Below are positions 1 through 35,100 of a DNA stretch of 44,894 nt, piece by piece. Where the stretch lies: assembly GCA_048213135.1 (NCBI GenBank), contig PS015500.1:1-44894 (forward strand), written 5' to 3'. A model generated the notes under the pieces. It searched no databases, was not told where the DNA came from, and was given only the letters and a program-made list of their open reading frames with translations. This DNA is from Reclinomonas americana ATCC 50394 (lineage: Eukaryota). The first letter of the stretch is position 1. Every line of letters starts with the position of its first letter. The translations under genes and the position numbers were made by a program.

Positions 1-460
1 GAAGAGGCTAAAGGAGAGGAGGGAAAGAAGGAGAGTGGGGAAAAGGGACGGAGGGGAAGAGAAGTAGGATGAGAAACGAGTGGAGAAGAAAGTGGCTCCA
101 GAAAGTCGAGACAGAGTGAGCCGACGAGAAAGAGGAGACGAGAAAAGCGGAGATGAGGAGCATAGAGGAGGAAAGCAGAGAAAGACGGAGACGTGAACCT
201 GCAGTCTCTCCCTTTAATTCTCTCTTTCTATCCCACTCAATTTCAGTCTCCGTTTCTCGACTCTCCCTCTGCGCGTGTGTGTGTGTCTTTTCCCTCACTC
301 TCGCACTGCTTCACTCTACTCTCCCTTTTCTCTCTCCCTCTCGCCCCTCTCCCTCACCCACTCCGTCTTCGTTCGATTTCTCTCTTTCCCTGTCTCACAC
401 ATACTCGCTCTCCGTCTCTCCCTTTCCCTCCCTCCTCCACTCTCCGGCCCTGTACGCAAC

Positions 461-799
461 TTTACAAACACGCGATCCGACGGCCCACTTCCCCCAATCA
501 ATCCACTGCGCAGATGCGACACGAATTCCCTCTCCAGCATGTGCTGATCCACTGCCGAGTGCACGAACACGTGAGGTACTTCGTCAATGAATCAAGGCCA
601 GCAAACATAAACGCACCCTTGTCCTCGGCCAGCAGTGAGAACGCAGAGGCAGAGGCAGGGGGTCCAGGCGGTGGCGGTGGTGGAGGAGGGGGCGGTGGGG
701 GTGGAGGGGGTGTGGGAGTGCCGCCAGCCGAGTGCACTGTCGTCGACACCTTCTTCCTCACACGTGAGCGCTCGGCGCTGGTGGCACGAGGCTCGCCCG
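461..799 (-). CDS. Internal exons of an unidentified gene (Pro-rich exon 799-617, exon 578-461); probably extends to ~2326 upstream and beyond the left window edge
   Basis: A 38-nt GTGCGT...GAAG intron (616-579) joins ...SLLAEDK to VPHVFVHSAVDQHMLEREFVSHLRSGLIGGSGPSDRVFVK in frame, ending at a GTTGCG donor (460). No family recognised. Confidence 0.4.
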
Positions 800-32100: not shown

Positions 32101-35100
32101 CTTCACCGTGCCTCCGACGGATGATGTTGCCTCCTCCCTGGTCACGCAGTACCAGTTCCCATGGAGCGTTACGGAGCGACTGCAGGGTGTCTACCCGATC
32201 ATCACCTCGACGCTTATCGACAATGGTTGGTCACCTGGTGTATTGCGTGCAGTAGTCTGAAGCATGTCTTCCCATTACATGGCTGTCACAGGTCTGCTGC
32301 CCTACACGGATAGCCGCAACTCCACTACCGTCTTCCTGAGTCCTGTCCAGCGAGTGTCTCTGCAAACGGCAAACGGAGTGCCGATCGCTCTCAACGCCAC
32401 TGCGGGTGAATCGTTCACGTTCGAGATTGCTCGTCAAGATAGCGCGCTCCTGGCCGCCGTCGCGCCGCAGCTGGTACGTCTCATGTGCATGCTTGCCTGC
32501 CCGTGAATGTGTCGTGTCTCACCTCCTGGCAAAGCGCGATGTGTTGGAGTACATTGATGGTTGTGGAGTGCGTGGCTTGCACTCACCCGAGGCAGCTGAC
32601 GATGGCGACACGACGCTGGTGGCCCTGGACGACAGTCGTTGCGCTTTGCATTGCAATTATGTGTGTCAGCTGACGAATAGGCGCATGTGCTTACGAGTCT
32701 GTACAGATTGCAACCGGACCGTGTACCGCAGTGACAATCGTGCGTGCGCATGATGCCATTGGCGCTAGGCGAGGGGTTCTCACGGCGCTTTTCTGTTCTT
32801 TGTTTGTTTCTACAGCGACTGCTGCCGATTTCGGCAAGCTTTGTGTGTTCTGGAACGAGACCAGGCAGCAGTGGATATCGGACGGATGCAAAACGTTGCG
32901 ACGCCGCACGGTGCATCGTTTGCGCTCTGTCCTCACGCACTGACGAATACACACACGTGACAGATTTGTGCGAGTGACGCGCGGAACCCACGACGTGCAG
33001 TCGTTTGTGTGTCGTTGTAATCACATGACGGATTTTAGCGTGAATTGTGCGTCCTTTGGGTGGCGACGCGTGAGTGTTCTATCGTGCTGATTCGCATTGC
33101 TCTCTCTCTCTCTCTCGGCAGTGCACGATATCTTCGACATTCACTTTACCTTTGTCTCGTTGCGTTTGTACTCGGCGGTGTTGTTGAGTCGCAAGTGAGC
33201 TAAAGTGACGATTCTCAGTCCTGCCGACCTTCTGTCACTCTTCACGGGCCAGCTGATGAGGAGCTCGACATTTTCGATTGTCATTGGTAAGCACTCGCCG
33301 ACCCGCTGTCACCACGAGCCTGCTCACCCACTCACCACCCTGCGCGCACCAGTGATTCAAGTCATCTATCTCATCCAGCTGTACATTGGCTTCAAAATGG
33401 ACAAGGCGAGCGACCGGCAGCTGGTCCGGTGTGTCACCATGTTAAAAATGCCGTTGCGGCAAGCTGAGCTGGCTGGCGTCAAGTTTGCCGGGTGCGTATT
33501 GCGTCGGGCGATTTCTTTGATTTGATCCTGAAAGTGAGCGTGTGTGATTGTGCACAGTGTGTTCTCCACCGCCGACCTGCGCGACCGCGATCTGCAGGCA
33601 GAAGATACAGGTGTGTATGCCTATCGCAGAGTCTTTGTGGCATCGCGCTGTTCACCCGTGTCGTTCATTCGGACAGACTCACTTCGGGCACTTGAAAGGC
33701 ATTTCGTGGCTGTTTCACGATTCCGACGTTTTGTGGCCATTGTTCTTGCGAGTCTCTTGCGTTTCTATGCTCGTTTCTAACTTGAATGCGCACAGAGCTC
33801 GTGCGCTCGGTGATACGCATCAATCGCGGCCGCAATTGGTTGATGAGACGTGCATTGGCCATGTGGACGGCTGTGAGAGGTGTGTGCATGCTGCTTGATT
33901 AGTGCGGCCTGTGCACTTCTGAGTAGCGTGGTGGCTCCGTGCAGATGACCACTCGTGGGTGTCGACGATAATCTGCCCGAATGCGGATCGCTTTCGGCGA
34001 ACGCAGCGTGTGACGGTGCGGGAGGGAGGAAAGGGGGGAAGGGAAGGGAGGGGGGAAGGGAGGGGAGGGAGGGAGGGAAGGGAAGGGCGGGAGGGGGAGG
34101 GAGAGGGAGGGAGGTGGAAGGGTGGGGAGAGGGAGAAGGGAGCAAGTTCGAAAAGGCGTACACACAGAGAACTCGCAGCAGAGAGAGAAAGAGAGACACG
34201 GCTCACGCACTGACCGTAGGCACACAGTTGTGTTGTCAAACTAAGAGAGGAGAAGAGAAAGGAGAATGGGAGATGGAGAAGTTTAGCACAGTAGTAACCG
34301 TGTGCTGAGAGGGACGGGGGCGAGAAGGAAAGGACGCAAAGTGCACAGTGGCTGTGCGCAGGGTGCAAGAGAGAGGGAGGGAGACAAAGAGACAGGGACA
34401 CGGGCAACTTGCCGGACTCTTTAGCAGTCTTCAGCAAGCCACGCGCAGAGTGTGCAGAAAGAGACTGTCAGACGAGGGACGTAGTTGTCTTTCAACTCGG
34501 AGAGGGAAAAGAGAGGAGAAGGGAGACGGTAGACTTGCAATACTCTTCACATGACCGCCGCACACTGCACTGTCGCCGTACGCACAATGAGAGTGAGAGG
34601 GAGGGAGAGAGATGTGTCGGCTCAGCACAATGACTGTCAAGCAGTTGTCTTGTTTCAACTCAGAGAGGGGATAAGGAGAGGAGAGCAATGAGAAAGCGAG
34701 GTAGGGGGATTGTGGTCTTGCAAGACTCTTCAGGAGACTATTGCGCTGCGTGCAGTCACGGTGTACAGCATGAGAGGGAGAGGTGTGAGAGAGAGAGGGA
34801 GAGGGGTTGGAGAACTACCAGGACTCTTCAGGCGACGGTCGCGTTGTGTGCAGTCATGGTGCACATCATGAGGAGGAGAATGCAAGAGAGAAAGAGGGGC
34901 TGTGTTTCAAACTTTCGCAGAGAACTCATGCACGTCGCACTGCCGTCTTAGAAGGAGAGAAAAGAGTCTGTAAGAAGCCGCCACACGCACTGTCGCTGTG
35001 CCGTACCATGTTTTCGATCGCGTGCTTCTATTCATCTCGAGCACCCTCTCTATCTTCTCTCCGCAAGTGGTCTGCGTTGGACCGAACTATGGAGTGACCA

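Follow-up and report, generated by a model that had tools for sequence, protein, structure and literature searches.

Does Reclinomonas americana ATCC 50394 mark the start of its introns with one 5' splice-site signal or with two? The question is raised by a 44,894-nucleotide (nt) stretch of its genome (assembly GCA_048213135.1, contig PS015500.1, positions 1 to 44,894; hereafter the window), for which a preliminary description made from the letters alone had listed 16 introns beginning GTTGCG or GTTGAG and had stated that such donors never follow an exonic G. Here donors of this kind (GTTGMG) are called class 2, and donors of the form GT[AG][AC]G, mainly G/GT[GA][CA]G(T), are called class 1; a slash marks the exon-intron boundary, -1 is the last exon base and +1 the first intron base. 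Our follow-up of the sequence suggests that GTTGCG(T), and rarely GTTGAG, is probably a genuine, discrete second class of 5' splice site, likely to be read by shifted or bulged pairing with U1 small nuclear RNA (snRNA). About one intron in seven in the window seems to start with GTTGCG, nearly always behind an exon that ends in a base other than G, and reading intron starts one base out of register, which is rare in humans, looks routine in this genome.

All 16 listed positions carry the motif (14 GTTGCG and two GTTGAG), and the preceding base is A, C or T every time. As introns, 13 of the 16 are supported. Eight are pinned by conserved protein motifs (two in DH, one in PCIF1, two in NHL, one in GPS and two at TIG domains), and at these eight junctions removal of the intron restores both the frame and the motif; five more (6258, 16212, 28628, 29112 and 29427) are picked by a gene parser that is blind to donor sequence. 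The other three fared less well, 10251 being weak, 460 unsupported and 33159 ambiguous. At seven junctions, conserved peptides were used as anchors on both sides and all stop-free, frame-compatible GT/GC...AG pairs between them were enumerated; the claimed GT donor proved to be the zero- or smallest-insertion solution at 8368, 13720, 22101, 22224, 32895, 23687 and 24646. The junctions that had originally been described as fixed by motifs (DH, PCIF1, NHL and GPS) are supported by profile or structure alignment, by this enumeration or by both.

Two of the pinned introns interrupt the DH domain of a WW-DH(-PH) gene on the minus strand (~5500-11700). Removal of the first, aca/GTTGAGTG (8301..8368, 68 nt), yields YVNTYDDALAML; just two solutions exist between the anchors FKMYTVYV and DDALAML, the claimed donor is used in both, and GC is absent at +4. 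The second, atc/GTTGCGTG (8897..9705, 809 nt), ends in the acceptor CCCCACAG with a score of 10.2. The RhoGEF profile match upstream of it (profile positions 2-44) stops on the final exon residue, and the next DH exon starts at 8896, 809 nt downstream, giving the join KIFSN/LKQILELQKTLL, which matches KIFSN/LKQILELQ. This intron is about ten times the usual length and contains repeated units that resemble open reading frames (ORFs), while the intron that follows it holds a perfect (AC)78 microsatellite adjoining an N gap (8604-8760).

The PCIF1-like gene, also on the minus strand (~12600-16700), contains cat/GTTGCGTG (13660..13720, 61 nt). Alignment to PCIF1 structures runs through the upstream ORF to ..GQQHM and resumes in a different frame at QALTYAAPHG, and among the five frame-compatible solutions the claimed one is the sole GT donor whose intron reaches a length of 45 nt. 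The splice product carries a six-residue insertion relative to vertebrate PCIF1 proteins; a homologue search with the PCIF1 exon returned no matches.

The remaining pinned junctions belong to a very long NHL-TIG-REJ-GPS gene on the plus strand (~21900-33700). In NHL blade 1, at cga/GTTGAGCG (22101..22176, 76 nt), anchor enumeration gives six solutions, and only the claimed one preserves the P-x-G spacing (FHDPRGMAGD) that the protein shows in its uninterrupted blades. The same blade is interrupted again by gaa/GTTGCGCG (22224..22291, 68 nt), which is picked by the donor-blind parser and which leaves the shortest peptide among seven solutions between the anchors NLFIVES and CIRRVD. Just ahead of a TIG-like and a TIG domain lie cca/GTTGCGGA (23687..23753, 67 nt, 3' score 9.6) and cca/GTTGCGCG (24646..24714, 69 nt), both picked by the donor-blind parser and both at an identical position relative to the start of their domains. 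At the latter the TIG profile match (4-38) begins on the first residues after the acceptor and the claimed solution is the shortest of three; the coding score of its upstream exon is poor. Finally, aac/GTTGCGAC (32895..32963, 69 nt, 3' score 9.1) falls inside the GPS motif and splits the profile, the upstream ORF matching positions 3-26 and the downstream ORF positions 28-44, and splicing creates the join DGCKT/FVRV...CRCNHMTDF.

These junctions also bear on a reading in which the introns are of the GC-AG type and begin three bases further in (...GTT/GCG), so that GTT would be exonic and the lack of G at -1 trivial. At every tested GTTGCG junction a GC donor at +4 can be joined in frame to the acceptor already assigned, at the cost of only one added residue, and the product of NHL blade 1 that is longer by one residue fits the spacing of blade 2 slightly better. 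The parser, limited to GT donors, cannot discriminate a GT from a GC start, and single short exons found no Pfam or relevant PDB match whose coordinates would separate GT at +1 from GC at +4. However, a GC start is impossible at GTTGAG, both solutions at 8368 use GT, and at 22101 the P-x-G spacing is kept by GT only. An exonic GTT that is invariant across introns in all three phases (4, 6 and 9 introns) cannot be a coding feature, and GTT makes up 19% of the valine codons in reliable ORFs. Moreover, TT/GCGTG is nearly consensus-free and would pair very poorly with any known U1, and the parallel between GTTG[AC]G and GTG[AC]G favours a single GT-based family. We therefore regard a GC-AG origin as very unlikely.

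Beyond the pinned junctions, the location of the hexamer was assessed with a purpose-written Viterbi parser that combines three-periodic coding, branch-plus-acceptor and intron-length models, with GT...AG as its sole requirement and with neither a donor term nor a -1 term. Versions without a branch/acceptor model merged genes, took the antisense strand or over-split, and were discarded. The parsed regions, 3000-16700 on the minus strand and 21800-33700 on the plus strand, contain 15 of the 16 claimed sites. Even in the untrained parser GTTGCG tied for the commonest donor hexamer (7 of 152 introns); after training without a donor term it came second (8 of 207 introns), although GTTGCG accounts for merely 26 of 2522 sense GT sites. 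Better-trained models, still with no donor term in the scoring, predicted 124 introns in which GTTGCG was the commonest donor: 15 of its 24 sense copies were used, and the introns included 10 of the 15 claimed sites. When GTTGCG was barred as a donor the parse lost 30.3 nats, more than for any other of the 30 hexamers tried (GTGCGT 14.5, GTGAGT 12.1, and 0.0 for eight hexamers).

With intron ends trimmed out of the model for non-coding sequence, the parser took 13 of the 31 GTTGMG sites on the sense strand, compared with 126 of 1933 for all GT (p=2.6e-8); for GTTGCG alone the figures are 13 of 24 copies versus 6.5% of all GT (p=5e-10), and for G/GTGMG 15 of 45 sites. The preliminary description had itself set positional independence as a test, and on that assumption 1.36 GTTGMG donors are expected where 13 are seen (p=1.4e-9). 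Where the gene strand is known from Pfam, 34 copies of GTTGMG are sense and 18 antisense. A strong branch-plus-acceptor signal stands 50-100 nt downstream of 38% of sense GTTGMG sites versus 12% of other GT (p=1.7e-5) and of 0 of 18 antisense sites; this comparison is independent of the coding models, and the 3' model alone does not separate the strands (87 versus 104 sites at threshold). In a control on the antisense strand the parser took 2 of 14 GTTGMG sites, and none of the hexamers was used more than seven times. The class-2 share of introns comes to 13 of 126 in the donor-blind parse, 19 of 132 with a learned donor table (the table parser) and 9 of 49 in a filtered set, made up of introns found by both parsers with a 3' score of at least 6, a length of 45-120 nt and flanking exons of at least 20 nt. 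Class 2 thus forms roughly 10-18% of the introns in the window, and GT[AG][AC]G donors are commoner.

It might still be argued that the class is an artefact of gene modelling, with the true splices at other nearby GTs and GTTGCG merely close to exon ends. Three of the 16 claimed sites are indeed without support, the hexamer is not over-represented overall, and the first four versions of the parser were poor or degenerate. Against this, the eight motif-pinned junctions have no equal alternative, the enrichment arises without a donor term, the association with 3' signals downstream does not depend on a coding model and the antisense control is negative, and we consider an artefact highly improbable.

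The five sites that depend on the parser are cat/GTTGCGTG (6189..6258, minus strand, 70 nt, local score 25.9), which is flanked by coiled-coil-like ORFs; acc/GTTGCGCT (16153..16212, minus, 60 nt, 3' score 8.3), picked by both the donor-blind and the table parser between low-complexity flanks that allowed no homology check; agt/GTTGCGTT (28628..28707, plus, 80 nt, 3' score 8.3), with a branch-like GCTGACA; ctc/GTTGCGTG (29112..29188, plus, 77 nt, local score 12.3); and cat/GTTGCGTG (29427..29499, plus, 73 nt, 3' score 9.2). The last three, like the first, were picked by the donor-blind parser. Sites 460, 10251 and 16212 had been set apart from the outset as less constrained. The donor aaa/GTTGCGTA (455..460, minus) has no acceptable acceptor, with a best donor-acceptor score of -0.2 and a GA-rich repeat downstream, and aca/GTTGCGGC (10183..10251, minus, 69 nt, local score 11.1), which lies past the WW domain, was picked by neither parser. 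At ctc/GTTGCGTT (33159..33164, plus, local score 0.1) there are two alternatives, caa/GTGAGCTA at 33195, which the parsers prefer, and gtt/GTTGAGTC at 33183.

The list was also incomplete, and six further sites are likely or possible members. Likely ones are ccc/GTTGCGTC (11055..11121, minus, 67 nt; table parser, 3' score 9.1, local score 15.0) and three introns found both by the donor-blind parser and in the robust set, namely gct/GTTGCGCA (10862..10922, minus, 61 nt, 3' score 9.0), gcc/GTTGCGTG (6509..6580, minus, 72 nt, 3' score 8.1) and ctt/GTTGCGCC (28197..28259, plus, 63 nt, 3' score 8.7). Possible ones are gca/GTTGCGGC (5994..6063, minus, 70 nt), which was picked by the donor-blind parser with a 3' score of just 5.2, and gtc/GTTGCGCT (32638..32706, plus, 69 nt), picked by the table parser (3' score 8.3, local score 11.6).

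As for the last base of the exon, in the donor-blind set a final G precedes 0 of 13 GTTGMG donors, 19 of 29 GT[AG][AC]G donors and 31 of 84 other donors (Fisher p=4.6e-5 for the first two), and in the filtered set the corresponding counts are 0 of 9, 14 of 20 and 14 of 20 (p=7e-4). Across 21 class-2 donors the base at -1 is A in seven, C in eight, T in six and G in none. The statement that these donors never follow an exonic G is accordingly borne out in the parser sets, and is tempered by one possible exception. Two sense-strand copies of G/GTTGMG exist, at 23810 and 7168. The first, g/GTTGCGG (23810..23815, plus), lies in a TIG-like coding exon that is read through in frame (..QIVVAGTAL..), and the hexamer alone is therefore not enough to make a donor. 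The second, ggg/GTTGCGTC (7101..7168, minus, 68 nt; acceptor at 7101, 7089 or 7080), is the sole in-range GT that is phase-compatible with three in-frame acceptors behind a good branch motif, ahead of the PH-like exon RVLFSDERECLLFSDLL. It may be a real exception, depending on the coding status of the S/P-rich exon upstream.

The relation does not run in both directions. Ordinary-looking donors, GTACGT and GTGCGT, are found after exon ends other than G at 22540 (plus), 6937 (minus) and 30213, 32740 and 33047 (plus), and GTTGCG is therefore not obligatory where the exon ends in another base than G. A wider rule that would tie T at +3 to a base other than G at -1 breaks down when GTTGMG donors are set aside (p=1.0 for the parser set and 0.10 for the filtered one).

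In other respects class-2 introns are best regarded as ordinary U2-type GT-AG spliceosomal introns. Those with an assigned acceptor are GT...AG in every case, their median length of 69 nt is that of the other introns, they occur in all three phases, and they carry CTSAC-like 7-mers 13-33 nt before the exon and a YAG acceptor as class 1 does, as found with a model that was seeded by eye. Short introns across the window mostly have a CT[GC]AC-like motif 13-33 nt upstream of a [CT]AG acceptor (e.g. 22409-22487, 25487-25578 and 30742-30807), and for a genome so rich in introns this branch site appears well conserved. Minor, U12-type introns were considered and rejected: their criteria are a [AG]TATCCTT donor and a TCCTTAAC branch site, and GTTGCG donors have no ATCC. 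A slide of both intron ends by one base (HG/TT...AGG/) would call for a regular G behind the acceptor and is excluded by the bases seen there (C5 G3 A3 T2 of 13), and a slide in the opposite direction is impossible, as -1 is never G.

According to the preliminary description, the motif is the local consensus displaced downstream by one base. Such an offset is indeed seen between the logos of 21 class-2 and 20 class-1 donors, with G at +4 in class 2 versus G/A at +3 in class 1, C/A at +5 versus +4, and G at +6 versus +5; the offset extends to T10 C7 of 21 at +7 in class 2 and T13 C4 of 20 at +6 in class 1. Class 2 is, however, much narrower than a plain shift would make it: G stands at +4 always, and C at +5 in 19 of 21 donors versus C at +4 in 12 of 20 for class 1. 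Only T serves at +3, the use of GTAGCG (0 of 4 sense sites), GTCGCG (0 of 7) and GTGGCG (3 of 25) being in no case above background.

A class so sharply defined over its first six to seven bases, in a genome that is extremely intron-dense, could in principle be the conserved end of a mobile, intron-generating family (introners), in which case GTTGCG would mark common origin and not a mode of recognition. Among 19 class-2 introns, however, blastn-short found 0 true pairs and no similarity beyond the donor; the longest shared interior substring has a mean of 5.8 in class 2 versus 5.7 among 40 other introns, the median length is 69 in both groups, and no base dominates at +9 to +12. As there is no shared sequence beyond about +8, class-2 introns are not copies of one element. 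A common origin would in any case not explain how the donor is recognised, and we rejected this extremely unlikely reading on the mutual dissimilarity of the introns.

How might two such classes be read? The 5' end of standard U1 is ACUUACCU. We consider it an evenly balanced proposition that the genome uses a two-register code, in which a single word for U1 begins either at an exon-final G or at the first G of the intron, and in which GUUGCGU has become a fixed signal in 10-20% of introns, possibly via an altered or extra U1-like RNA. In the mechanism that we hold most likely, the 5' end of U1 would read a single word, G-N-U-G-C-G-U, in both classes. In class 1 the exon-final G would fill the first slot of the word, and in class 2 the intronic G at +1 would fill the same slot, with the pairing shifted by one base or, equivalently, with one U of +2/+3 bulged. 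Cleavage would stay immediately before GU in both classes. The shifted or bulged register would cost a mismatch or a bulge, and only the best-pairing remainder (GCG, usually followed by T) would be tolerated. One U1 word in two registers would explain why the logos are offset, why T stands at +3 and why class 2 and an exon-final G exclude each other, and the narrowness of the class would arise because a costly register needs good pairing elsewhere. The earlier idea that this lineage routinely uses a shifted register is thus favoured by the logo offset, the restriction of +3 to T and the exclusion of exon-final G, and is weakened by the narrowness of the class and by the lack of an A preference at -1.

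Several points weigh against this reading, or against the evidence for the class itself. The raw count of GTTGMG is not elevated (60 in the window on both strands versus 68.5 +/- 8.3 in dinucleotide shuffles), so that the case for the class has to be made from the location of the hexamers and not from their number. The parser is home-made and noisy, and its 'other' donors probably include many errors; motifs already viewed in claimed introns served as seeds for its 3' model, and the later coding and 3' models were trained on a parse made with a learned donor table. Sense GTTGAG was used by the donor-blind parser at 0 of 7 sites, the homology-supported 8368 and 22101 both being missed, and GTTA[AC]G donors were used at 0 of 4, so that class 2 is narrower than a shifted class 1. 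With regard to pairing, C at +5 is unpaired by standard U1 and its near-invariance is unexplained unless U1 is altered. Extended shifted pairing predicts A at -1, yet no enrichment of A is seen in the 21 class-2 donors. Nor do pairing energetics alone predict that G at -1 should be avoided rather than merely unnecessary.

The preference for C leads to an alternative in which the donors are real and are read not by slippage of a standard U1 but by an altered U1 5' end (e.g. with a G facing +4/+5) or by a second U1-like RNA complementary to GUUGCG. The strong preference for a base that standard U1 is unable to pair, near-invariant at +5 of class 2 (19/21) and favoured at +4 of class 1 (12/20), suggests an altered U1 position, and U1 5' ends that have co-evolved with donors are described for Entamoeba and Mastigamoeba (bioRxiv 10.1101/2022.06.08.495308). 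The same source, however, gives Thecamonas and Micromonas as preferring C at +4 with a standard U1, and an Rfam search found no snRNA gene within the 44.9-kilobase window. A changed U1 position would account for the preference for C, but neither for logos that differ by one base nor for the absence of G at -1, and it may coexist with a shifted register. On balance we judge an altered U1 or a second U1-like RNA, in place of shifted or bulged pairing, to be unlikely.

Shifted or bulged pairing has its closest parallel in human splicing, where both the shifted and the bulge +2/+3 registers are reported as experimentally established for rare sites (PMC4856993). The shifted (+1) register at atypical human donors was described by Roca and Krainer 2009, as given by Tan et al. 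2016 (PMC4856993), and the bulge +2/+3 is predicted there at 68 of 201,541 human sites, or 0.03% (Table 3, citing Roca et al. 2012). As in R. americana, the human shifted register is characterised in that account by a GU followed by the consensus one base downstream, with cleavage at the GU, and the test oligonucleotide ACA/GUCAAGUAUA has an exon end other than G (Table 2). Whereas the register is rare in human, class 2 would comprise ~10-18% of the introns in the window. Near-fixed GTTGCG, C at the shifted +4 and the strict exclusion of exon-final G are features of this genome's own. The bulge +2/+3 model shares with class 2 a GUU at the site, either U of which could be bulged, leaving +1, +2 and the bases further downstream paired. 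The use of T only at +3 speaks against a free bulged base (GT-N-GCG) and is compatible with a bulge limited to U. The model predicts no penalty for an exon-final G, yet exon-final G is absent here.

Other lineages offer partial likenesses. Entamoeba is described with the U1 sequence AACAAAC and GUUUGU donors, and Mastigamoeba with ACGUAC and GUGCGC donors (bioRxiv 10.1101/2022.06.08.495308); as in the present case, donors begin GUU or favour C at +4, and the recognition RNA may have changed with them. In Entamoeba, as presented there, the atypical donor is near-universal and the genome intron-poor, whereas in this intron-dense genome two classes exist side by side and which of them is used goes with the last exon base. 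Class 2 is a minority of donors, unlike the near-universal atypical donor of a single co-evolved U1 of the Entamoeba type. The copepod Eurytemora, with GA and GG donors (PMC5714493), and the tunicate Fritillaria, for which many non-GT donors are reported and a shifted U1 register is discussed (bioRxiv 10.1101/2025.08.15.670264), resemble R. americana in having a sizeable minority of non-textbook donors that misleads gene finders. The donors described for both animals are non-GT, whereas here the GT is kept and it is the register of the remaining signal that changes. Literature searches by sequence or by concept, which did not cover supplementary files, found no published GTTGCG donor class, and the search with the literal sequence returned only primers and unrelated RNAs. 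What appears to be new is an abundant, sharply defined second GT class that coexists with the main class and is chosen by the last exon base; the rare human registers were already known.

The genes in which these introns lie are set in a GC-rich window (~56% G+C) with seven N gaps. They are intron-dense eukaryotic genes, with exons often only 40-250 nt long and introns mostly of 55-95 nt. In addition to those described above, the window holds a PAQR/HlyIII-like gene (~3300-4700, minus strand), an uninterrupted WD40 ORF (17144-18274, minus), a flotillin-like ORF (18701-20083, plus) and a second WD40 gene (~42000-44900, minus) with a long uninterrupted ORF at 43362-44312. The flotillin/Band 7 ORF encodes 461 amino acids without introns and is surrounded by intron-dense genes. 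Its best matches in protein collections have only 59-61% identity and are mostly from metagenome or genome contigs labelled flotillin, and horizontal acquisition or a retro-copy could account for it.

Repeats of several kinds are also present. In the WD40 genes the DNA itself repeats in tandem with a period of 126-127 nt and 70-80% matches (17330-18070, 42539-42984 and 44035-44349), from which the repeat units would be young or homogenised. The long plus-strand gene region is separated from the second WD40 gene by an AT-richer block (40000-42000, G+C 0.39 versus ~0.56) that contains tandem repeats of 63 to 171 nt and a 551-nt N gap. In the REJ region (31129-31730, plus), three successive stretches end in near-identical branch and acceptor strings, TCTCACT or TCTCATT ... 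TCTCAAAG/CAC or TTCTCAAG/CAC, which suggests local tandem duplication of an exon-intron unit; the tiny exons that the parser places there are unreliable.

The existence of a second donor class has a direct bearing on how genes of this organism are predicted. When the parser was run with a single donor matrix, class-2 donors fell to 2 of 255 predicted introns. Gene finders built on a single matrix would penalise these donors and thereby mis-model a large share of the genes in this genome. If the proposed reading is true, R. americana would provide a natural setting where U1 often pairs in a non-canonical way and such pairing is under selection, whereas the human cases have been shown for few sites by minigene work. 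Hundreds of native introns could then be used to address how the cleavage site stays fixed when U1 pairs out of register, how the 5' splice site is handed over to U6, and why an exon-final G is traded off against the intronic signal.

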